Source: Minisyncoccota bacterium | GTDB lineage: Bacteria; Patescibacteriota; Minisyncoccia; Phycocordibacterales; SW-6-46-9 | Reading direction: 5' to 3' | Assembly: GCA_040905385.1 (NCBI GenBank) | Contig: JBBDRP010000002.1 | Location: 595,403-659,402, forward strand | DNA: 64,000 nucleotides | Notes under the pieces: generated by a model | Seen by the model: only the letters and a program-made list of their open reading frames with translations | Told to the model about the DNA's origin: nothing | Databases searched by the model: none | Part shown: positions 2,601-40,726 of the stretch, one piece after another | Position numbering within the stretch: position 1 is the first letter of the stretch | How the letters are laid out: each line of letters opens with the position of its first letter | Made by a program: the position numbers and the translations under genes

Positions 2601-3281
2601 ATGACAGCAACTATACCGCGTACAGGTAAAACAACGGTGCCTTTTTGGCAGAACCGCTATCTCTACGCCTACACCGTAGCCGGGATGATGGCGATTTTAT
2701 ACCTACTCTTCTACTTTCTTGGTCTCGTACCAGTTGATTTTCGTTACGAGCCCAGCACACCAAGCCGTAGAAATACCCCCGCAGTGAGCGCTCAAAGCAC
2801 CACTACGATCGATAATCTTTCACCGGCCGTTCCGCAGAATGAGCAGGCTAGCCACATCACTATCGACAAAATCGGCGTTGATACCCCGATCATGAATCCC
2901 GTAAGTACCAATATCCAGACGCTCAACAACTACCTCTCCGAAGGAGCCGTCCGCTACCCCACCTCTGGCACACCCGGCGACGGAAATCTCTTCCTGTTCG
3001 GGCACAGCTCAGGTCTTTCCAACATCATCAATCAGGCCTACAAGGCCTTCAATAACATTGGTGAGCTCGAAAAAGGTGATACAATAAAAGTAGAAACGTT
3101 CTCTGGAACCTACTACTACTCCGTTATTGATGTCGAGCTACACAAGGATGCGGAAATCTTCGTCCCGTTTGATACGGGCAAGGATATGCTGACCCTGTCA
3201 ACCTGCAACAACTTCGGAGCCAAGGAGGACCGATTTGTCGTTCGGGCCAAGTTTACCAACTATGTACCTTACGTACAGTAG
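2601..3281 (+). CDS. Sortase family transpeptidase
   Basis: N-terminal TM; catalytic His in LFLFGHSSG, Cys in TLSTCNNFG (TLXTC), Arg in FVVRAKF. Confidence 0.75.
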   Translation: MTATIPRTGKTTVPFWQNRYLYAYTVAGMMAILYLLFYFLGLVPVDFRYEPSTPSRRNTPAVSAQSTTTIDNLSPAVPQNEQASHITIDKIGVDTPIMNPVSTNIQTLNNYLSEGAVRYPTSGTPGDGNLFLFGHSSGLSNIINQAYKAFNNIGELEKGDTIKVETFSGTYYYSVIDVELHKDAEIFVPFDTGKDMLTLSTCNNFGAKEDRFVVRAKFTNYVPYVQ

Positions 3282-27781: not shown

Positions 27782-29560
27782 TTATCCGCTTGAATCTTTT
27801 GCTATATCCTTCAGGTCTTTCTTTATTGTTTTTTCAACTTTATCCAGATCCTTTTTTAATTTTTTGATAACCTCCTTCTCCTTTTTGGTGAACTTCTTCT
27901 TACCTTTAATACCCTCCAGACTCTCTAGTCGTTTCATTAACTTCTCCTTAAAGTCATCCAAAGATTCATGTAAGTCACCTTCTGTTTTTCGAAGATTTTT
28001 TCCTAATTGTTTCTTTATAAGTATAACTTTTCGCCAACCGTAGAACAGGATGATAATGAGAGCCAACAGCAGGGAAGCTATTATGATAAATGTTGTCAGT
28101 AGATCAATTGCCCAGTTACCAATTCTTACTATTGCGTGCTTCTCTACGATGATAGTAAGCTCTTTGCTCAACTCGCTCTTTGCTCCACGGCTATCAATAA
28201 CTCTCGCCTGCAGGCTGTAAACACCATCCTCCAATCCAGTATCAGAAACAAAGCTAAAGGAACCGTCGCTTTCTACAGTGACCTCGTGGTATTCCCCATC
28301 ACTTTCATCTTCTTCTTGTAGCTGAATCTCTACTTTCGAATCAGGATAATCAGTTTCTCCTTTGATGATAAATATCTCATCATTTCGAAGCGTACGAGGA
28401 TATTCAGTAATAACTGGTGCATTTAGTGGCTCAACCTCAAAATCTGCAGTATCTGCTATGGAGTTTCCGGCCTTATCAACCGCCCGCACTATCATAGTGT
28501 ATGCACCTGGCTCCAGGGCTTCGGTTTCATACCTGCCGCTTCCATCATCTCTCCATATTGACGAGTACTCATTGATGATCTGGATATCGTAATGATCTAT
28601 GCCTGAGGTTCCATCCTCAGCAGCGAAGATAAACGCTACTTTTGGGTCGGTCATGTCAGCTCTCTGTACCTCCTTAATTTCGAATCGACTTGGCTGTTCC
28701 GTGTCAATCTGGATTCGTGTATGAGAAATATCTCCCCATCCATACCCATTACGAAACTGCGCATGAAGATACCATGCTCCATCAGACAAATCTTCGATTA
28801 CTCTCTCGCTTATCGGTGGTGTGTGCTCTACTGATGGTACGCTCTCAGAAGAGTTATCTAAAAGTAAGCGGACAGATGTCACGCCGGAAGGTACGGACCA
28901 GGAAACATGAGCATCCTTCTCGGAGTACCACCCATTAGGGTCTGGATGAGACGAGGACGTAACATCTGGAGCGGCTGGTGTGTTCGCTGAAGGAGCGGGA
29001 GTAGGACTCGGTGTTGGTGTTGGAGTAGGGGTAGGTGTTGGTGTTGGGGTAGGACTAGCTTCGCCGAGCACAAAACGAGACGACCTCATTCCATCCAGAA
29101 TATTAGTCCCTTGTCCATCATTAGCAAGAACCGAACCACCGGAAAAATTAACTGCTGCTTCACCGGTAGACTTTACCCGAAAATTTAACGTTGCTATTTC
29201 ACCTCTATTACCCGAAAAACCCGGGTTCGGAATTACACCCTCGAAATTAACTGTTCCAGAAGTATTTGAAAATGCTGGTTCCTGAACCCAGAATGAAAGT
29301 ATTGAGTTCTGTCTTGAGATAGAGGTAATCTCAAGTAAATTCTGAGGAAAAGAGATTTCACCAGAAGCGGCGTTCATTGCCTGATCCAGGTTTGTTACAT
29401 CAATACTGACCGAAATATTGCTACCTACAGGATACGATCCTGATGACGGGCTTAGCTCCAGTGTGGCAGCATCAGCGGTCGTGAATGCCATTACAGCAAA
29501 GAGTATGCAGAATATTGTTAAAAACCCTCGAATTTTACTGATTACATCTGCCATATGCAC
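27782..29560 (-). CDS. Surface protein with an N-terminal cohesin-like domain, (PT)n linker, Ig/FN3-like domains, C-terminal TM and K-rich cytoplasmic tail
   Basis: Signal; cohesin-like block ...EISFPQNLLEITSISRQNSILSFWVQEPAFSNTSGTVNFEGVIPNPGFSGNRGEIATLNFRVKSTG...; PTPTPTPTPTPTPSPTPAP; TM IIIASLLLALIIILFYGW then a K/E-rich tail. Confidence 0.5.
   Translation of the reverse strand: MHMADVISKIRGFLTIFCILFAVMAFTTADAATLELSPSSGSYPVGSNISVSIDVTNLDQAMNAASGEISFPQNLLEITSISRQNSILSFWVQEPAFSNTSGTVNFEGVIPNPGFSGNRGEIATLNFRVKSTGEAAVNFSGGSVLANDGQGTNILDGMRSSRFVLGEASPTPTPTPTPTPTPTPSPTPAPSANTPAAPDVTSSSHPDPNGWYSEKDAHVSWSVPSGVTSVRLLLDNSSESVPSVEHTPPISERVIEDLSDGAWYLHAQFRNGYGWGDISHTRIQIDTEQPSRFEIKEVQRADMTDPKVAFIFAAEDGTSGIDHYDIQIINEYSSIWRDDGSGRYETEALEPGAYTMIVRAVDKAGNSIADTADFEVEPLNAPVITEYPRTLRNDEIFIIKGETDYPDSKVEIQLQEEDESDGEYHEVTVESDGSFSFVSDTGLEDGVYSLQARVIDSRGAKSELSKELTIIVEKHAIVRIGNWAIDLLTTFIIIASLLLALIIILFYGWRKVILIKKQLGKNLRKTEGDLHESLDDFKEKLMKRLESLEGIKGKKKFTKKEKEVIKKLKKDLDKVEKTIKKDLKDIAKDSSG
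28995..29060. repeat. GGTGTTGG-type simple tandem repeat encoding the (PT)n linker
   Basis: ggtgttggtgttggagtaggggtaggtgttggtgttggggtagg. Confidence 0.6.
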
Positions 29561-29597
29561 CTAAAAGAAGAATTATAAAAGCTGTGTACATTATACC

Positions 29598-30389
29598 TTA
29601 AAAACTCGCATCCTCGCTCGAAGCCGCTGCTGGAGCGATAATTTCGATTCGTTCATTACCAGCATTATCAATTGCCTTTACATAGATATGACTTTTCAGG
29701 TCCTGATCACGCAGCAAATAAGGGCTGCTTGCCTCCTGCCAAGCCGATAAAAACCTTAAAAACGTAAATCGAACCTCCTTAACCTCATACCGATCTATAC
29801 CCGAACCTTTATCCTGCGTTTCGAATACAAGAACTGCATTATTGTCAAAAAGCCTATGACGCTGCACGACCTCTGGGCTAAATGATTGTGGGCTTATACT
29901 ATCCACTCCAGCATCCGTATTGATCTCTGTTTTGTTTTCAGACCTAACCAAGGACAGCTGTACATCGGCCGGCGTTCCGGATCCGTCATTTAGTAAGGCC
30001 ACAAAGTCTTCTACTCTTATCTGATCCTCACCTCCCCCTAAAGTCTCGAAGGTAACAGAGAATATCACTCCTCTATCACCGTAGTATCCACCAGGGGTAA
30101 TCCCGGAAAAAGCTATCATTCCGTCCGTTACTTGCGGTTTCTCTATCCATAAGTTAACAAAGGAACTACCGCTATTTATACGTTTCACCTGCAAAGAATC
30201 ATCCGCGTACAGAATCTCACCCTGGACAGCATTGATGGTTTCGCCTTGCGTGTCGACAATGACATCAACACTAAACCTCTGCTCATCATCCAAAAAGTCC
30301 GGAAATATCCCTATCACGTGTAGCAACAAGGCAATAAAAACAATCCCGGTAAGTGTACTGTATGAAGTTATTCTGCTTTTATAATTCAT
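29598..30389 (-). CDS. Membrane-anchored cohesin-like domain protein (paralog of the N-terminal half of 27782..29560)
   Basis: N-terminal TM; INAVQGEILYADDSLQVKRINSGSSFVNLWIEKPQVTDGMIAFSGITPGGYYGDRGVIFSVTFETLGGG parallels the cohesin-like block of its neighbour; shared GSGIDRYEV / YVKAIDNAGN block. Confidence 0.5.
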   Translation of the reverse strand: MNYKSRITSYSTLTGIVFIALLLHVIGIFPDFLDDEQRFSVDVIVDTQGETINAVQGEILYADDSLQVKRINSGSSFVNLWIEKPQVTDGMIAFSGITPGGYYGDRGVIFSVTFETLGGGEDQIRVEDFVALLNDGSGTPADVQLSLVRSENKTEINTDAGVDSISPQSFSPEVVQRHRLFDNNAVLVFETQDKGSGIDRYEVKEVRFTFLRFLSAWQEASSPYLLRDQDLKSHIYVKAIDNAGNERIEIIAPAAASSEDASF

Positions 30390-30398
30390 GTTTTAAAA

Positions 30399-31451
30399 TT
30401 AACCGGTCCAGTGGAAGGCCATGATACTAAAGTCAGTTAAATCAACCTGCCCATCACGCTTTAAATCAGCAATATCTGGCGGTGAAGGCCGGTTGTACCA
30501 GTACGCAAGAATTGAGAAGTCAATCAAGTTCACGTTACCGTCTTCATTAACATCACCAATTAACCCAGTTTCCGTGGTTTCTCTGTACACATCCCTTGTC
30601 CCGACAGAGAAATTAACAGATTTACTGAATGGACTTATATCTTCGTCATGAATGGATCTTGATCTGGTTAAGTGATCACCTGTCTCTAAAAGAGAAGTAT
30701 CAAGATTATACAGATAGATACCATCATCATCAGCAGTAGCATTAGCAAAAATCTGATGCTCAGAATTTATGGTTATTGAGATATTTGACTCCGGTGTACT
30801 CTGACCAAAAATTACTAAGTTATTACCACGACGAACTTCTCTTTTATCCGTTGTTAACGTCGGCGCAAGAAAGACTCCTGATATATCAACTGATGAATCC
30901 TCAGTTACACTAACAGGGAACGTCTTTAAGGATGAGCGCTCCCCATTAATATCCTCACTGTATACTGAGAAAATATACCCTCCGAGTTCTAGGTCAGAAA
31001 CCCGCATCGAGAAGGTTGCATCCTGACTAGCCTGCGTAGTAGCTATTATCCTTGCGTCCTGAAGCAGAGTTACTGTTTCTCCTGGATAAGCCTTACCTGA
31101 TATTCTCACCTCCGCTTCATCATCGTCATCATCACCACCTCCACCGCCACCACCACCGCCGTCATCTGATGAAGGTGGTGGAGCAATACATTCAGACGTA
31201 TCGAAAGAGCAATCAGAACTACAGCTTAACGTACCACCTTCATAATCGAGCGTTGAGCACGTTTGACCATTAAGATCACCATTATCACACTGCTCACCAC
31301 CTTCCTTTACGTTATTACCACAAATACTTACCTTGACGGTGGTATCAATTGACGCCGTGCTCGCCCACACAGTCGCCACACCATAGGCAGCAAAGCTACC
31401 TAGTAATAAAAAAACCGTAGTTATACGCCAGCATGATATTTGTAAGTTCAT
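30399..31451 (-). CDS. Secreted Cys-rich protein with a C-terminal dockerin-like repeat pair
   Basis: Signal; 11 Cys in the N-terminal region; G9D5 linker; C-terminal DVNEDGNVNLIDFSILAYWY and DLKRDGQVDLTDFSIMAFHW (Ca-binding loop plus hydrophobic helix, dockerin type I pattern). Confidence 0.6.
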   Translation of the reverse strand: MNLQISCWRITTVFLLLGSFAAYGVATVWASTASIDTTVKVSICGNNVKEGGEQCDNGDLNGQTCSTLDYEGGTLSCSSDCSFDTSECIAPPPSSDDGGGGGGGGGDDDDDEAEVRISGKAYPGETVTLLQDARIIATTQASQDATFSMRVSDLELGGYIFSVYSEDINGERSSLKTFPVSVTEDSSVDISGVFLAPTLTTDKREVRRGNNLVIFGQSTPESNISITINSEHQIFANATADDDGIYLYNLDTSLLETGDHLTRSRSIHDEDISPFSKSVNFSVGTRDVYRETTETGLIGDVNEDGNVNLIDFSILAYWYNRPSPPDIADLKRDGQVDLTDFSIMAFHWTG

Positions 31452-32056
31452 TATTTACGCTGAACACCTATCGAGAAGGAGAATCGTCGCTTTATATACA
31501 CAACAAGCAACGTAGTTACAATAATCGCCAGGAGTGAGTACGACCACGGACTATAACGCTCTAAGATACTGAGCGTACGATAATAAACACCCTGGATGAA
31601 GTTAGCCGGCGCGACCGAGAAATTCAGCTTGGACGCCGCGGCAATCCCAATACTGGTACCACCGGACTCAGACGTACTGACCGGCCGCGCCTCCAGAAAG
31701 GCGAAGTACTCGCCCGGAACTGTTTTGATCGGGATATCCAGCTGAATACCCACCGCCCGTGTCTGGCCGGGCTCAAGCGTAAACGTCTCTGGCGAGAAAA
31801 CAAACCACTCTTCCGGCGGGCGCATCTCCTCCTGGTTCTCATGATACTCAATAGACATGGTGTAGCCGGAGGTCTCATCACCAGTATTGATAACCATCAC
31901 GGATGGCAGTGTATTCACCGCTCCGGGATTCAGCGGCTTGTCTACCTGAATCTTGCCGGTGCCGACCCCCACCCCGATCGCTCCAAACGTAACGACCGGA
32001 AGCGAGAGGAGTAAAAGGATGGCTGTAAGCTGGATTGTACGGGTAAGTACGTTCAT
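31451..32056 (-). CDS. Surface beta-sandwich protein with a C-terminal TM anchor and short basic tail
   Basis: Signal peptide; C-terminal TM LLAIIVTTLLVVYI + KRRFSF; its stop overlaps the downstream start (TAATG). Confidence 0.4.
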   Translation of the reverse strand: MNVLTRTIQLTAILLLLSLPVVTFGAIGVGVGTGKIQVDKPLNPGAVNTLPSVMVINTGDETSGYTMSIEYHENQEEMRPPEEWFVFSPETFTLEPGQTRAVGIQLDIPIKTVPGEYFAFLEARPVSTSESGGTSIGIAAASKLNFSVAPANFIQGVYYRTLSILERYSPWSYSLLAIIVTTLLVVYIKRRFSFSIGVQRK

Positions 32057-32125
32057 GCAAAAAAACCTTACGAAAAAGAGCTTCTTAACCTGCTCTTCTT
32101 TATGTTCACGATATCACAACCCGGA

Positions 32126-32641
32126 TTAGTTGGCGACCGCCTGTACCGTCACATCAGCATTTTTCTGATCCGTATCAGTAGAGCTAGTTGGAGTAGTGAT
32201 CTCCAGATCAAATGTCTGAGTGCCGGAGGAAGCTATTGCGGTTGCTAGTGTTTGGTAGCTGGTGGTGAGGGCCGTCCAGCTACTACCGGTATCAGTAGAG
32301 AATTTATGAACATACTGATCAGCTGCCGGAGTTGCAGCTAGTGTCCAGTCCGTTCCACTTCCTGATGCAGCATTCTGACCCTGAATATTGAGATCTATGG
32401 TGGTGTTTCCATCGTTGGTGGCAGTCTGCTGGTCTCCGAGAGTTTGTGTGTCCTCGGTTGTACTAGCCGACAGTACACCGTAATCGATAGCCCCATCAGC
32501 AACAGAGACAGAGATATTCTGAAACTGCACCGTTGCCGCTACGGTAGCTGAGTCCTGAGCAACTGCATAAGAGGCGACCATTAGGCCGGCAATTATAGGA
32601 ATAACGAATAGTAAAGAGGTTTTTTGCATATACTGTTTCAT
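32126..32641 (-). CDS. Secreted surface-subunit-like protein (short paralog)
   Basis: Signal; about 120-aa domain shared with 32755..34176 (IDYG..TIDLNI.GQ..WTLAAT...DQYVH.FSTD.G..WTALTT..QTLAT.IA..GTQ.FDL....DVTVQAV). Confidence 0.45.
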   Translation of the reverse strand: MKQYMQKTSLLFVIPIIAGLMVASYAVAQDSATVAATVQFQNISVSVADGAIDYGVLSASTTEDTQTLGDQQTATNDGNTTIDLNIQGQNAASGSGTDWTLAATPAADQYVHKFSTDTGSSWTALTTSYQTLATAIASSGTQTFDLEITTPTSSTDTDQKNADVTVQAVAN

Positions 32642-32754
32642 ATTATGTATGTACTGATAAGATAAATTCGTACCTTTACTCTAGATTAGCACAGGAAATA
32701 AGAATATTTATGTCAAACGGTGTGGAAAACTTTCAGGGCAGTATTACGTGTAAA

Positions 32755-34176
32755 TTACTGCTGTACGGCCTGCACCGTCACATCCACCGACTGCTCGGTG
32801 TCACAGGATGAATCGGTCGGTGAAGTAAGCTGGAGGTCAAAATCCTGGGTGCCGGCGGCGGCAATACCAGTAGCTAAGGTTTGATTGGTAGTAGTTAGCG
32901 CCGTCCAGACGCCGCCGCTGTCGGTAGAGAACTCATGCACATACTGGTCAGTACCAGCCGTGGCGGCCAATGTCCATGGACATGCGGTATCCTGGCCGAC
33001 AATATTAAGATCAATGGTGACGTCTCCAGTGTTAGTGACTGTCTGGGTATCTCCAAGCGATATGGTGTCATTGGTATTTCCGGCCTGCACCCCACCGTAA
33101 TCAATCGATCCGTCGGATACAGTAATGGAAATCGTGGCAGCGGTGGTAAAGGAGTAGCACAGCCCCGAATCGGTAAAGGTGCCGCTGCCGTCCGGATCCA
33201 GTGCCGAGGCCTCCCACCAGTACTGGGTACCAGCCGTTAAGGCATCGCCAGACTGGACGGTAAAATCTCCCTGCGTGCCAGATGTGTAGCAGCTGGTGGG
33301 GCTATTTGTACAGGTGGCATCGGTGCCGGCCCAGCCGGTGGAATCAACCGACTGATCATGGGTCTGTACCACGGTTGAACAGCCAGAATCCGAATAAATT
33401 GTAGTCTTGTAGCCAAGATTATCACCGTCCGGATCCGTCGTCGTCATCAGGAAATTCGGGGTTTTACTGACGTCAGTCGCACCATCAGTAGGCGCATCCT
33501 GGGATGGTGCATTCGGGGGCTGGTTGGGCGGTGTGTACTCAACCGTTACTCGCACCCGATACACGCTCACAAGCTGAGGTGGGCCTCCGGTATCTTTTAT
33601 GTACCGCAGTATGACCCCGAAATTTGCCGAGGTAACATCCGCCTGTGTCAGCCCAGCTCCCCACCCATCCGCAGATCCGCCGTAGGTTTGTATTGTCTTG
33701 GTTGTTTGTGATAGATTACCTGCTTTATTATCACCTACCCCGTTACTTCCATCAGTGGTGAGCTGAACCGTATCATCAGACACAGAAGTATCCTGGGTCA
33801 GCCACTCTACCTCAACCGTTACGCCATCAATTGTCGAGTCAGCGGGAATATCTGTGGATGTAAAGCCAAAGTTTGTAGCCGACAGCACACTGGTGAAGGA
33901 ACCATTTCCACCCAGGTCACAGGTGGTGGCCGTGTCGGTGGTATCGCCAGTGGCATTACCAATATTTTCCCAAGAACACTTATTTGTCACCACCTCCGTT
34001 GCCGTGCCGGTATAGTAGGTACTGGTCGTATCGGCGGAGGCAACCTGCGGCTGCGGCGGAATATCCGGATTCGAGGATAGCTGCGGCCAGCCGGAAAAGA
34101 TCCACAAAAGTGCGACTAATGTAGCTATTGCTGGGGTAAGATACTTCACGGTACATATTATACTACACATTTTCAC
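32755..34176 (-). CDS. Secreted surface-subunit-like protein (long paralog with a T/D-rich N-terminal extension)
   Basis: Signal; the C-terminal domain is homologous to the 32126..32641 product. Confidence 0.45.
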   Translation of the reverse strand: MKMCSIICTVKYLTPAIATLVALLWIFSGWPQLSSNPDIPPQPQVASADTTSTYYTGTATEVVTNKCSWENIGNATGDTTDTATTCDLGGNGSFTSVLSATNFGFTSTDIPADSTIDGVTVEVEWLTQDTSVSDDTVQLTTDGSNGVGDNKAGNLSQTTKTIQTYGGSADGWGAGLTQADVTSANFGVILRYIKDTGGPPQLVSVYRVRVTVEYTPPNQPPNAPSQDAPTDGATDVSKTPNFLMTTTDPDGDNLGYKTTIYSDSGCSTVVQTHDQSVDSTGWAGTDATCTNSPTSCYTSGTQGDFTVQSGDALTAGTQYWWEASALDPDGSGTFTDSGLCYSFTTAATISITVSDGSIDYGGVQAGNTNDTISLGDTQTVTNTGDVTIDLNIVGQDTACPWTLAATAGTDQYVHEFSTDSGGVWTALTTTNQTLATGIAAAGTQDFDLQLTSPTDSSCDTEQSVDVTVQAVQQ

Positions 34177-34225
34177 TCACAAATACGGCTTATAAGATAC
34201 AACTCATCACGAAACGCTGGATAAT

Positions 34226-34262
34226 AAAAACACCTCATCGAACAGTATGTTCGATGAGGTGT
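34226..34262 (-). terminator. Intrinsic terminator of the lipoprotein gene
   Basis: Perfect 13-bp stem CACCTCATCGAAC-agtat-GTTCGATGAGGTG; T5 on the transcribed strand. Confidence 0.7.
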
Positions 34263-34280
34263 CTGAGTTAATGATTTCAG

Positions 34281-34856
34281 TTAGTTTCCTACATAATTTT
34301 CCGGTCGCACCAGGTTTCCTTGACCACTTACGGTATACGTATGGAACTCCCAGGTATTCCAAATAGCCCAGTCCGAGTTACCGGTATAACGCGGATCAGT
34401 TTCGTGCACGATGACGTAATTGTAGGTTCCGTTATTATCGTAGCCAGAGCACTTGATGTCGTTGATGATCCAGCCTGAGTCCAGGAACGGATCATTTTCG
34501 AAGGATCCGCGATACTGAACTTGATAATCACACACGGTAAGTGTGGATTGATCTAGTTCATCGACAGAGTTAACTGTTCCTTGCTCACGACCATCTCCGA
34601 GATCCAAGTACCAGTCTCCAGCGGCATCATACGCATACAGTGCTGTGTACTTTCCGGTCACGACCTCTCCTTCATCAGGAATACCGTTATCATCCTCGTC
34701 CTTGAAATTACTTTTAACGGTAGAGTTCTGGTTTTCCGTAACCTCAGCAAGATCATAGGTGTCTGCGTCTGGTGCTGTTGGTACCTCTGTAGAATCACAT
34801 CCCATCATGATTATCATGAAAAAGATGATACTGAAAATACTAATTGACTTTGTCAT
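34281..34856 (-). CDS. Putative lipoprotein
   Basis: Signal with lipobox-like IIMMGC. Confidence 0.5.
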   Translation of the reverse strand: MTKSISIFSIIFFMIIMMGCDSTEVPTAPDADTYDLAEVTENQNSTVKSNFKDEDDNGIPDEGEVVTGKYTALYAYDAAGDWYLDLGDGREQGTVNSVDELDQSTLTVCDYQVQYRGSFENDPFLDSGWIINDIKCSGYDNNGTYNYVIVHETDPRYTGNSDWAIWNTWEFHTYTVSGQGNLVRPENYVGN

Positions 34857-37148: not shown

Positions 37149-38018
37149 ATGACTTATATTCAAGATAAAAATCACGGGTCCACAATCGGCGTTATTATTT
37201 TTATCATCGCGATTCTCGCACTGGGTGCATTTCTCCTGTTCAGTAGTGATAACCCGAATGGTGACGCAGGCGATTCTACGGCTACCATCAGTCAATCTGA
37301 ATTTATCTCTGTGAAAACTCCCGGAAGTGGCGATCAAATCTCCAGCCCACTGACCGTCTCTGGTAAAGCCCGCGGCCAGTGGTACTTCGAGGCCGACTTT
37401 CCGGTCGAGGTTGTAGACAACGCCGGCAATTCTCTTGGTATGGCCCCAGCCACCGCCGACGGTGAATGGATGACCGAAGACTTTGTCCCCTTCAGTGGCC
37501 AAGTCAATTTTGACGCCAGCGCAGCCGAAACAGCTGACGGTCGCGTAATTTTCCATCGCGCCAACCCGTCCGGTCTCGAGGAGAATGCTGACTCCATCGA
37601 GGTTCCAGTAACCTTCAGTGACGAGGAAGCTGCTACCACCACCGTCAAGGTTTTCTGGAGTAATGACGCCGCGGCCGTCGCTGGTGACTGCTCGGTCGTC
37701 GGGAGTTTCGAGCGAGAGATTCCGGCCACACAAGCCGTCGGCCAAGCAGCCCTGAGTCAGCTACTAGCCGGACCTACTGCTACAGAAGTATCTGACGGCT
37801 TCTCTACCAACATCCCTGATGGAGTCTCAGTAAATAGCCTTCGTATTGAGGACGGAGTAGCCTACGTCGATTTCTCTGCCGAACTTAATCAGATTGGCGG
37901 ATCCTGTCGCGTCACCGCAATCTACAATCAGATACATAAAACGCTGCTGCAGTTTTCATCCGTTGATGAGGTAGAGATCTCCGTTGACGGAGAAACCGAA
38001 GCCATTCTGCAGCCATAA
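37149..38018 (+). CDS. Secreted Gmad2 Ig-like + GerMN domain protein
   Basis: N-terminal TM; SPLTVSGKARGQWYFEADFPVEVVDNAGN (Gmad2-like) and a C-terminal GerMN-like block (AALSQLLAGPT...VAYVDFSAEL...). Confidence 0.6.
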   Translation: MTYIQDKNHGSTIGVIIFIIAILALGAFLLFSSDNPNGDAGDSTATISQSEFISVKTPGSGDQISSPLTVSGKARGQWYFEADFPVEVVDNAGNSLGMAPATADGEWMTEDFVPFSGQVNFDASAAETADGRVIFHRANPSGLEENADSIEVPVTFSDEEAATTTVKVFWSNDAAAVAGDCSVVGSFEREIPATQAVGQAALSQLLAGPTATEVSDGFSTNIPDGVSVNSLRIEDGVAYVDFSAELNQIGGSCRVTAIYNQIHKTLLQFSSVDEVEISVDGETEAILQP

Positions 38019-40177: not shown

Positions 40178-40726
40178 TTAATCACGTAAAGCTGTACAAT
40201 CAGCTGGATAACCCTGGTTGTATGGATCCGAGCAGTTCAGTGGGCCAGGATAAAAGATATGACAATGGTGGTCATTGACCCGTCGGCCGCTGAACGGACA
40301 GTCTCCTGTCTCAAGCTCCTTTTCGGTATAAATACCTATATAAGCAATCTGACAACACGGTCCACCGGGCGTATTCTTAAACGAACTATACTCATAAAAA
40401 TACGTACTATCTCCAATCGGGTCAGTCGGCATGCTCGGAAGATAACCGCCGTCAATCAAATCGTCAAGAAAATCACCGTCATGACTTTCCTCCACCCCGT
40501 TTCCTTCTGGGAATCGTCCGACATCAGAGTAGTACAACTCCAGAGCTATCATGATCTGATTGACGTCACTAAATCGCCGAGCATCACGAGCATCCTGCCG
40601 TACCGTCACCAGAGATGCCATCATCGTACTGGCAATAATGCCAATGATAGCAATTACCACCAGAAGCTCAATAAGTGTGAAGCCACGTGAAGGTATGACG
40701 GTATTTGGAAAGTTAATTAGATGCAT
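40178..40726 (-). CDS. Type IV pilin-like protein (prepilin-type N-terminal cleavage/methylation domain)
   Basis: RGFTLIELLVVIAIIGIIAS class III signal; Cys-rich C-terminal domain. Confidence 0.75.
   Translation of the reverse strand: MHLINFPNTVIPSRGFTLIELLVVIAIIGIIASTMMASLVTVRQDARDARRFSDVNQIMIALELYYSDVGRFPEGNGVEESHDGDFLDDLIDGGYLPSMPTDPIGDSTYFYEYSSFKNTPGGPCCQIAYIGIYTEKELETGDCPFSGRRVNDHHCHIFYPGPLNCSDPYNQGYPADCTALRD

Follow-up and report, generated by a model that had tools for sequence, protein, structure and literature searches.

The paralogous genes at 32126..32641 and 32755..34176 are part of a six-gene cassette that occupies positions 27782-34176, on the minus strand, of the window, the 64,000-nucleotide stretch of Minisyncoccota DNA analysed here. 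The cassette is not confined to this genome but represents a widespread CPR family. In our view, its products are best read as a fibre held together by donor-strand complementation, in which the chaperone is tethered to the membrane, an usher is lacking and a cohesin–dockerin pair forms the base; we infer the polymerisation, and we give this reading as a whole an even chance of being right. The features concerned are listed below, from upstream to downstream.

34228..34264, minus strand: terminator-like hairpin with a 17-bp stem and a T-rich tail, between the lipoprotein gene and BL
32755..34176, minus strand: BL, the long paralogue, 473 aa, with a hydrophobic leader, a variable T/D-rich region and the C-terminal shared domain
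32755..33132, minus strand: shared pilin-like domain of BL, residues 349-473, at the extreme C-terminus, with 60% identity to Bs
32126..32641, minus strand: Bs, the short paralogue, 171 aa, with a signal peptide, a conserved N-terminal strand and the shared domain
32516..32557, minus strand: N-terminal extension of Bs, residues 29-42, QDSATVAATVQFQN (family consensus TATVTATVTVQN), the candidate donor strand
31451..32056, minus strand: A, 201 aa, with a signal peptide, a predicted PapD-like β-sandwich, an amphipathic helix, a TM helix and a basic tail
30399..31451, minus strand: DOC, 350 aa, secreted, combining a Cys-rich module similar to DUF4215 and Big_6 Ig domains with a type I dockerin at the C-terminus
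29598..30389, minus strand: COH1, 263 aa, anchored by a TM segment at the N-terminus and carrying a cohesin-like domain
27782..29560, minus strand: COH2, 592 aa, a signal-peptide protein in which a cohesin, a PT linker and Ig-like domains (Big_13, Y_Y_Y) are combined with a TM helix at the C-terminus and a tail rich in Lys and Glu

Extent and conservation of the cassette

The cassette is found in about 80 CPR species genomes, with both the Microgenomates and the Parcubacteria branches represented. It also occurs in MAGs labelled Gammaproteobacteria, Saccharibacteria and Bathyarchaeia, labels that may not be right. Its gene order is BL, Bs, A (a membrane-anchored sandwich protein of ~200 aa), DOC, and one or two COH genes. 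Synteny was followed at 83 loci, each from a different species. A adjoins Bs in 77/79 loci, BL is present in 53/57, DOC in 69/76, and COH in 60 of the 69 loci with enough flank; a second cohesin gene, typical of Parcubacteria-type cassettes, occurs in 28. Median intergenic gaps are 91 nt for BL–Bs, 29 nt for Bs–A, 7 nt for A–DOC and 3 nt for DOC–COH, and these five are the only neighbour classes conserved across loci. Given the frequencies of DOC and COH and their tight spacing to A, the cohesin and dockerin genes are conserved cassette members and not mere neighbours.

The four open reading frames that the initial annotation had grouped together, the paralogous pair with A and a lipoprotein, are all present on the minus strand. 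The lipoprotein (34281..34856), which has a plausible lipobox (..MMGC, read by eye from the sequence), nevertheless lies outside the system. The strong terminator-like hairpin separates its gene from BL and marks the upstream boundary of the cassette, and the gene is not conserved at the loci of relatives; we therefore rejected it as a component. A sigma-70 promoter scan gave nothing above background. Searches of the literature on CPR with cohesin/dockerin, donor strand or PapD turned up no account of the cassette.

The shared C-terminal domain

BLASTP aligns residues 43-169 of the 171-aa protein with residues 349-471 of the 473-aa protein, with 60% identity and 76% positives over 127 residues (E = 3e-44), a relationship far beyond chance. 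The shared C-terminal domain of ~120 aa that had been noted from the sequence is thus real, and DVTVQAV does lie near both C-termini, which read ..VQAV(AN/QQ); only the estimate of about 50% identity was too low. A profile of the family matches 1508 cluster representatives, which divide by length into two classes, the short forms (160-190 aa) and the long forms (270-1581 aa). In the long forms the domain is always at the extreme C-terminus, and in 138/140 family members the protein ends 3-6 residues past VDVTVQ. The family has an invariant W99-T-L101 motif, its single W-x-L.

The AF2 monomer of Bs is a confident β-sandwich (mean pLDDT 84), in which the shared domain may be a complete sandwich, a point that would weigh against strand exchange. 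The initial annotation had left room for a generic low-complexity region and for loss of synteny in relatives. Neither was found: the confident sandwich and the 1508 profile matches argue against low complexity, and synteny is very strong. In a fold search with the Bs model, the predicted fold best matches chaperone-usher pilins, which head the Foldseek results with probabilities up to 0.99, E-values of only 5e-3 to 0.1 and TM scores of 0.35-0.5. By sequence, Pfam and NCBIfam hold no family for the domain (searched with both paralogues and, for Pfam, 45 family members), and Fimbrial, SCPU and similar Pfam models gave zero matches in the same set. Scans of individual members against Pfam gave the Bs family no consistent assignment. 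PDB sequence searches with Bs, the Bs-family profile, the A profile and BL returned nothing useful save a short Fn3/PKD-like match of BL. The sequence links of the cassette to PapD and pilins are weak, with E-values of 1e-4 to 5e-3 in single comparisons.

Short and long forms

Bs is 50-60% identical across CPR lineages, also between distant classes. Its N-terminal strand, with five alternating small/hydrophobic positions, is conserved in 162 short forms as V (93%), A (93%), T (96%), V (95%), T (91%), Q (88%) and N (85%). In the AF2 monomer this strand is undocked, with pLDDT ~50-59. E. coli pilins have an N-terminal extension to which that of Bs can be aligned, though the signal is weak: in the hhalign comparison of the Bs family with 18 of these pilins, the aligned stretch comprises only 29 N-terminal columns, and the single-sequence comparison of Bs with FimA was not significant. 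The signal peptide of Bs is of the ordinary AxA type, and the protein has no class III signal or N-methylation motif of type IV pili; the N_methyl pilin gene found at 40178-40726 is unrelated. We also considered the hairpin and T-run after Bs as an attenuator yielding an excess of the major subunit, and rejected it, as the folding is no better than that of shuffled sequence.

The Bs-type strand is lacking in 53 long forms, whose pre-domain sequence is unrelated. In its place the long forms carry variable domains, 230-1800 aa in size, and in this they are like tip adhesins. BL itself has a BL-specific motif, WIFSGWPQLSSNPDIPPQPQVASA, in its N-terminal hydrophobic leader, and its variable region, which had been noted as a T/D-rich extension, includes an Fn3/PKD-like stretch at about residues 217-257. 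The early suggestion of a major/minor (tip) pair is supported, in that the strand occurs in short forms only and the domain is always C-terminal in long forms. We propose that Bs is the major subunit and BL the tip or adhesin subunit.

The anchored protein A

That A is a TM-anchored β-sandwich protein, as first described, agrees with its signal peptide and with its AF2 model (pLDDT 85), which has a β-sandwich and a C-terminal TM helix. The mature N-terminus, IGVGVGTGKI, is invariant, and the protein also has a strand IGIAAA(A/S)KL(Y/N)F. As modelled, A has a PapD-like fold, with a single sandwich domain that is followed by the TM helix and no PapD_C; Pfam PapD_N matches, in 16/50 members, are weak and below threshold. 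Against a profile of 7 E. coli chaperones, hhalign gives A an E-value of 2e-4 when signal peptides are included and 4.6e-3 for mature domains (score 22.1 vs 13.0 +/- 2.7 in 100 column shuffles), a drop that makes the signal suggestive only. The single-sequence comparison of A with FimC was not significant. In the end-to-end alignment, the near-invariant lysines K35 and K143 of A align with chaperone R8 and K112, respectively. In PapD and FimC, these two residues hold the free C-terminus of the subunit.

The PapD-like character of A points to an assembly route, which the initial annotation had called unclear, and suggests that it is chaperone-assisted donor-strand complementation. We propose A as a membrane-tethered chaperone and/or base.

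Dockerin and cohesin proteins

The cohesin/dockerin trio reported downstream holds for two of its three members at the Pfam thresholds: DOC matches Dockerin_1 with 33.3 bits (cut-off 22.9) and COH2 matches Cohesin with 34.8 bits (cut-off 24.1) and Big_13 at 1e-13, while the 263-aa COH1 stays below the Cohesin threshold (15.7 bits, E 0.018). COH1 is nevertheless a paralogue of COH2 and of the cohesin proteins encoded at other loci. The DOC start codon and the A stop codon share 1 nt. The mature N-terminus of DOC (..SIDTTVKVSI) resembles the N-terminal strand of Bs, in register with the cleavage site, with a score of 17.5 vs 7.6 +/- 1.9 and 0/100 shuffles.

The cohesin–dockerin pair is apparently the cell anchor of the cassette. 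The arrangement recalls cellulosome-type anchoring, with a type I dockerin on a secreted protein beside membrane-anchored cohesins, although binding in the cassette is predicted. Unlike in the cellulosome, DOC carries no enzyme; it has Ig domains, a Cys-rich module and an N-terminus that resembles a strand. The pair, moreover, has a fixed place in a cassette whose other genes are pilin-like and chaperone-like.

Proposed assembly

The system that the cassette most resembles in fold is that of the chaperone-usher pili (type 1/Fim, P/Pap and archaic Csu). In common with these are the predicted pilin-like Ig fold of the subunit (Foldseek); a major-type subunit, here Bs, with a conserved N-terminal extension of alternating small/hydrophobic residues; an adhesin-type subunit, here BL, made of N-terminal binding domains and a C-terminal pilin domain without extension; the position of the pilin domain, always at the extreme C-terminus; and a partner of predicted PapD-like fold, here A, with two conserved basic residues at the R8 and K112 positions. 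There are also differences. Chaperone-usher pili belong to diderms, whereas this cell has no outer membrane and the cassette no usher. The six cassette proteins have no match to Pfam Usher, and the cassette lacks Fimbrial and PapD_C matches as well. There is just one short and one long subunit per locus, and the cassette is consistently accompanied by genes for a dockerin protein and membrane-bound cohesins. A is single-domain and TM-anchored, while the known chaperone has two domains; this and the missing usher count against the model. As likely as not, in our view, the cassette encodes a CPR-wide cell-surface assembly that is built by β-strand complementation and is akin to chaperone-usher pili, both in its fold and in its logic, but suited to cells that lack an outer membrane.

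It is tempting to propose the following pathway. All components would be exported by Sec, in keeping with the signal peptides visible in the sequences. A, held in the membrane by its C-terminal TM helix, would capture the pilin-like domain of newly exported Bs and BL through two conserved strands, its first (GVGVGTGKI) and its last (AAAAKLYF), and K35 and K143 would hold the free C-terminus of the subunit in the manner of R8 and K112 in PapD/FimC. The strand TATVTATVTVQN of an incoming Bs would then displace the chaperone strand in the preceding subunit. Since BL has the domain and no donor strand, it could only accept a strand and would sit at the distal end, displaying its variable adhesin-like N-terminal domains. 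DOC would close the base, its mature N-terminus mimicking the Bs strand, and its dockerin would plug into the membrane-anchored COH proteins, fastening the assembly to the cell. Strand insertion and the A–Bs and DOC–Bs contacts, like the polymerisation, are what we infer from these features.

Alternative readings

The closest known operon logic, by analogy, is that of the WxL/WxLIP (Csc) cluster of Firmicutes. In Lactobacillales, small WxL, large WxL and WxLIP proteins have been proposed to form a strand-complemented surface platform, in which a TM-anchored Ig-like partner is predicted to donate the strand that completes the sandwich of the domain (PMC10599100, PMC9772566). The WxL/WxLIP systems of Lactobacillales and Bacillales share with the cassette a monoderm cell and a W-x-L motif. 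Moreover, the WxL-type gene set (small domain-only protein, large protein with the domain at its C-terminus, TM-anchored partner) is found here in 77/79 and 53/57 loci. Thus, one BL, one Bs and one A might form a non-polymeric, strand-complemented envelope platform, with BL displaying binding domains and no fibre; the main difference from the fibre is the copy number of Bs. The identical operon logic and the invariant W-T-L motif speak for such a complex. However, the cassette proteins belong to none of the WxL (PF13731), DUF916 and DUF3324 families, with no match in 45 + 50 members even at E <= 5; the shared domain has one W-x-L motif where WxL has two; and A has one sandwich domain, not two. 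The cassette occurs in CPR and not in Firmicutes, and cohesin/dockerin genes replace the small LPXTG protein. In addition, chaperone-usher pilins are favoured by the ranking in Foldseek, Bs has just the homotypic strand-plus-domain design that a polymer would need, and DOC and COH would be left without a role. We regard this platform as rather unlikely, though a serious contender.

A plainer explanation is that the shared domain is an envelope-anchoring module, binding peptidoglycan, an S-layer or A with no strand exchange, so that Bs would be abundant and associated with the wall, while BL would be an adhesin held by the same module. Its C-terminal position and high conservation fit such a role, and WxL domains are reported to bind peptidoglycan (PMC9772566). 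It would leave unexplained that the most conserved segment of Bs is its N-terminal strand, unfolded in the model and missing from BL, that DOC has a similar strand, and that the C-terminal tail is fixed at 4 residues. We consider it improbable.

Fibres of TasA (B. subtilis) and the archaeal bundling pili or threads resemble the proposed fibre in that their cells lack an outer membrane and their subunits use N-terminal donor-strand complementation. There, an accessory protein (TapA/AbpB) supplies or accepts a strand. A matrix fibre of this kind, chaperone-free, self-assembling and secreted with an accessory protein, appears very unlikely here. Subunits of those fibres are jelly-rolls of the TasA family, whereas the Bs family has no sequence match to them, including none to Pfam Peptidase_M73/TasA (PF12389), and the structural matches rank below chaperone-usher pilins (Foldseek). 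The cassette has no SipW-type peptidase, and its conserved PapD-like partner and its cohesin–dockerin genes have no counterpart in those systems. Finally, a Gram-positive-type pilus built by the sortase at 2601..3281 is next to inconceivable: that gene does encode a sortase (Pfam Sortase, 1.5e-21), as annotated, but it is ~29 kb away and not syntenic in other loci, and we reject the route because neither Bs nor BL has a sorting signal, both lacking, as first noted, an LPXTG-like motif and also a C-terminal TM segment or charged tail, and ending 4 residues past the last strand.

Possible implications for attachment in CPR bacteria

The CPR/Patescibacteria make up a large share of bacterial diversity, and the majority are believed to spend their lives on the surface of, or otherwise attached to, host cells. 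To our knowledge, almost nothing is known of this attachment beyond type IV pili. Few multi-gene surface systems besides the cassette are conserved in both of the major CPR branches, and an unusually conserved short subunit combined with hypervariable outer domains of the long subunit is the pattern expected for a conserved shaft with host-specific adhesins. Taking the fibre reading further, we suggest, tentatively and with less than even confidence, that most Microgenomates and Parcubacteria carry one conserved surface organelle: an usher-independent pilus with a membrane-tethered single-domain PapD homologue, a hypervariable adhesin tip, and a donor-strand-bearing dockerin adaptor on transmembrane cohesins. 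Such an organelle would be either a monoderm relative of the chaperone-usher pathway or its ancestral form, and the WxL system would be its sister. It would also be a prime candidate for the structure by which these episymbionts attach to their hosts.

If the donor-strand mechanism is true, chaperone-assisted pili of this kind would extend to bacteria without an outer membrane and would be linked to the poorly understood WxL clusters of Firmicutes, and cohesin–dockerin pairs would gain a structural anchoring role outside cellulosomes.

Gene content and conservation of the cassette

All open reading frames of the region lie on the minus strand, and those of the anchored sandwich protein and the dockerin protein overlap by one base (stop codon of the former, start codon of the latter). 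In transcription order, the region contains:

34856..34281, minus: D, lipoprotein-like, 191 aa
34264-34228: terminator-like hairpin, 17-bp stem, between D and BL
34176..32755, minus: BL, long paralogue, 473 aa
32641..32126, minus: Bs, short paralogue, 171 aa
32056..31451, minus: A, anchored sandwich protein, 201 aa
31451..30399, minus: DOC, dockerin protein, 350 aa
30389..29598, minus: COH1, cohesin-like protein, 263 aa
29560..27782, minus: COH2, cohesin protein, 592 aa

D carries a plausible lipobox (..MMGC; 34281-34856, minus) and has no family match. The initial annotation counted it as a member of the gene set; we place it outside the unit, since its gene is not conserved beside the cassette in loci of other genomes and the hairpin separates it from BL.

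Exact-protein look-ups gave four loci, including WS6 and Daviesbacteria, with the same order: a long form, a short form, an A-like protein, a small Cys-rich protein with a dockerin-like end, and a cohesin-like TM protein. When one genome per GTDB species was scanned, 145 genomes carried an A relative, and 80 loci were fetched. HMMs of four protein classes were mapped onto their six-frame ORFs, and counts were taken only from loci with enough flank. The initial annotation had looked to synteny in relatives, and it holds: the short form lies directly upstream of A in 77/79 loci, a long form is present in 53/57, DOC follows A in 69/76, and COH is present in 60/69, with two COH genes in 28 loci. 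Median intergenic gaps are 91 nt (BL-Bs), 29 nt (Bs-A), 7 nt (A-DOC) and 3 nt (DOC-COH). The five- to six-gene cassette, dockerin and cohesins included, is strictly conserved. Named lineages among the genomes with an A relative include Wildermuth-, Davies-, Shapiro-, Nomura-, Moran-, Vogel-, Levy-, Veblen-, Collier- and Dojkabacteria, as well as Komeili-, Uhr-, Ames-, Pace-, Kaiser-, Falkow- and Woesebacteria, WWE3 and Minisyncoccales.

Two types can be recognized. In the Microgenomates type, DOC measures ~200 aa and the single COH ~340 aa, the latter with a Cys4 motif and three TM segments; the Parcubacteria type, to which the window belongs, has a DOC of ~350 aa with Ig domains and two COH proteins of ~300 and ~580 aa. 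Some loci hold two A-type, PapD-like copies (L006, 5793-6428 and 8509-9144; L023, 6308-6907 and 6926-7537), and L063 and L067 apparently have two short-form genes each, so that subunit and chaperone numbers vary between lineages. The record titles of many cassette-bearing MAGs (L008, L012, L024, L025, L029, L039, L056 and others) name Gammaproteobacteria, Pseudomonadales, Bdellovibrionales, Saccharibacteria or Bathyarchaeia; these third-party labels are probably unreliable in view of the gene content.

The short and long forms

BLASTP aligns Bs with BL at 60% identity over 127 residues (E = 3e-44), a match that takes in all of Bs past residue 42 and the final 125 residues of BL. The similarity of the common C-terminal domain is thus real and stronger than claimed, and the earlier figure of ~50% identity was too low. 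At 100% identity, the window's Bs matches a hypothetical protein in a Candidatus Paceibacterota MAG, which places the source organism in the CPR (Patescibacteria). Bs has no sequence match in Pfam, NCBIfam or PDB. Despite this absence the family is very widespread. A first search gave 227 close relatives, 50-60% identical and labelled WS6, WWE3, Uhrbacteria, Daviesbacteria or Minisyncoccia, and a profile search of 1.84 billion representatives gave 1508 proteins at E <= 1e-3 and 860 at E <= 1e-10. Two classes stand out: short members (160-190 aa) match the profile over its full length, and long members (270-1581 aa) invariably carry the domain as their last element. The protein ends 3-6 residues (usually 4) past VDVTVQ in 138/140 members with that motif.

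The key difference between the forms is the segment directly ahead of the domain. Across 162 short forms, the stretch of 12 residues after the signal-peptide cleavage site is near-invariant (consensus TATVTATVTVQN; V 93%, A 93%, T 96%, V 95%, T 91%, Q 88%, N 85%), with five alternating small/hydrophobic positions and threonines between them. In 53 long forms, the residues just before the domain are unrelated to this strand.

About a third of BL proteins, including those of the window, L003, L005, L021, L025, L035, L064 and others, carry a leader, W(I/V/L)FSGWP..P.(I/F)PP(K/E)I..A.A. In the window it lies at 34033-34107 (residues ~24-48 of the 473-aa protein), after the N-terminal hydrophobic segment. 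Among ~3800 ORFs in 87 loci it is confined to BL proteins and one fragment, probably a split BL. Its AxA site falls ~20 residues past the hydrophobic core, a spacing atypical for signal peptidase I, and the leader may serve specifically in sorting or processing.

Links to chaperone-usher proteins

The initial annotation likened the pair to subunits of a surface fibre, and structure prediction with a fold search is consistent with this. From a 45-sequence alignment, AlphaFold2 predicts Bs as a confident beta-sandwich (mean pLDDT 84; >90 over most of residues 50-170), with the conserved N-terminal strand at only ~50-59 and not assigned as a strand. In Foldseek searches of the PDB, ~40 of the best 50 matches are chaperone-usher pilins or adhesin pilin domains, among them FimA, FimG, FimF, PapA, PapE, CsuA/B, CS17, CupB6, CsuE and FocH, at probability 0.9-0.99, modest E (5e-3 to 0.1) and TM-scores of 0.35-0.5. 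The model of A (50 sequences; mean pLDDT 85) starts with a signal peptide and low-confidence residues 22-31, followed by an eight-strand sandwich and two helices, the first amphipathic and the second TM. The predicted folds are pilin-like for Bs and PapD-like for A.

At the sequence level, the links to the chaperone-usher system are weak but consistent. PapD_N (Pfam) matches 16/50 A-family members below threshold (best E 1.4e-3), alongside NPCBM_assoc (29/50) and fn3_5 (20/50), and JGI annotates some members as 'P pilus assembly chaperone PapD'. We aligned seven chaperones and 18 pilins of E. coli K-12 as profiles for hhalign. The A family matches the chaperone profile over 166 columns (E = 2e-4, probability 47%), a score to which signal peptides add; for mature domains only, E = 4.6e-3 with a score of 22.1, against 13.0 +/- 2.7 in shuffled controls, and 0/100 column shuffles reach 22.1. 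The alignment runs end to end (125 vs 121 residues), placing A IGVGVGTGKI on FimC GVALGATRVIY and A AAAAKLYF on SRIKLYYRP. The near-invariant K35 and K143 of A fall on R8 and K112, which in PapD/FimC anchor the carboxylate at the pilin C-terminus. Bs matches the pilin profile over 29 columns only, the N-terminal extension and first strand (E = 1.2e-4).

The N-terminus of DOC resembles the Bs strand. In mature DOC proteins it reads ..V-x-A-T-V-K-I-S-V, then CGNG (consensus), with the alternation seen in Bs and at an equal distance from the cleavage site. Against DOC N-terminal regions, hhalign aligns Bs at E = 4.4e-7 and A at E = 0.042, the latter through the signal peptide only. Without signal peptides, a 12-column match of Bs and DOC scores 17.5 vs 7.6 +/- 1.9, and 0/100 column shuffles reach that score.

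Proposed assembly and comparison with known systems

It is tempting to propose that the cassette functions in the manner of chaperone-usher pili, with A capping subunits and the Bs strand displacing this cap and linking them. Since BL would be unable to donate a strand, it would be distal, displaying variable adhesin domains. The last subunit would receive the Bs-like strand of DOC, and DOC would also dock on the membrane cohesins. CPR cells have no outer membrane, so an usher would not be needed in this design, and the membrane tether of the putative chaperone A would keep assembly at the cell surface. COH2 (27782-29560, 592 aa) bears a Lys/Glu-rich tail of ~90 residues besides its C-terminal TM helix, and Microgenomates-type cohesin proteins (L001 9691-10755, L003 10008-11024) have three TM segments and CxxC...CxxC. 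Such elaborate non-extracellular parts hint that the surface assembly may be connected to the inside of the cell.

The main rival is a single Bs per assembly, with which the model becomes a WxL-like ternary complex. In the WxL clusters of Firmicutes, a WxLIP strand is predicted by AlphaFold to complete the WxL sandwich (PMC10599100, PMC9772566), and PDB entries 9i1y and 9i25 hold WxLIP alone and bound to long WxL; the cassette differs in sequence families, motif number and the domain count of the partner. TasA/ABP fibres have the donor-strand principle in common with it but give lower structural matches and no family match. Sortase and type IV pili are ruled out by missing signals.

The sortase gene noted earlier is present (2601-3281, plus; Pfam Sortase 1.5e-21), but no cassette protein has a sorting signal. 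Another gene, type IV pilin-like (40178-40726, minus; N_methyl 1.4e-08, T2SSG 5.6e-05, Pfam), lies 6 kb upstream and represents a conventional pilus system distinct from the cassette. The plus strand at 37149-38018 encodes a secreted protein whose Gmad2 and Germane (GerMN) domains are usually mentioned in connection with spore germination.

In full-text literature searches, neither the cassette nor any PapD-like or pilin-like CPR protein was found described. One paper notes Pfam TasA homologues in Patescibacteria, and in a metatranscriptome study the most expressed Paceibacteria genes include some for unnamed, secreted Ig-like proteins, which could not be tied to the Bs/BL domain family.

The chaperone-usher system is closest to the cassette in predicted fold and proposed mechanism, although the cassette has no usher and no second chaperone domain and lies below sequence-family thresholds. 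The cassette would be new in building a strand-complemented surface assembly that dispenses with an usher, relies on a chaperone of one domain tethered to the membrane and stands on a cohesin-dockerin base, and also in doing so in a new, very large lineage, the CPR.
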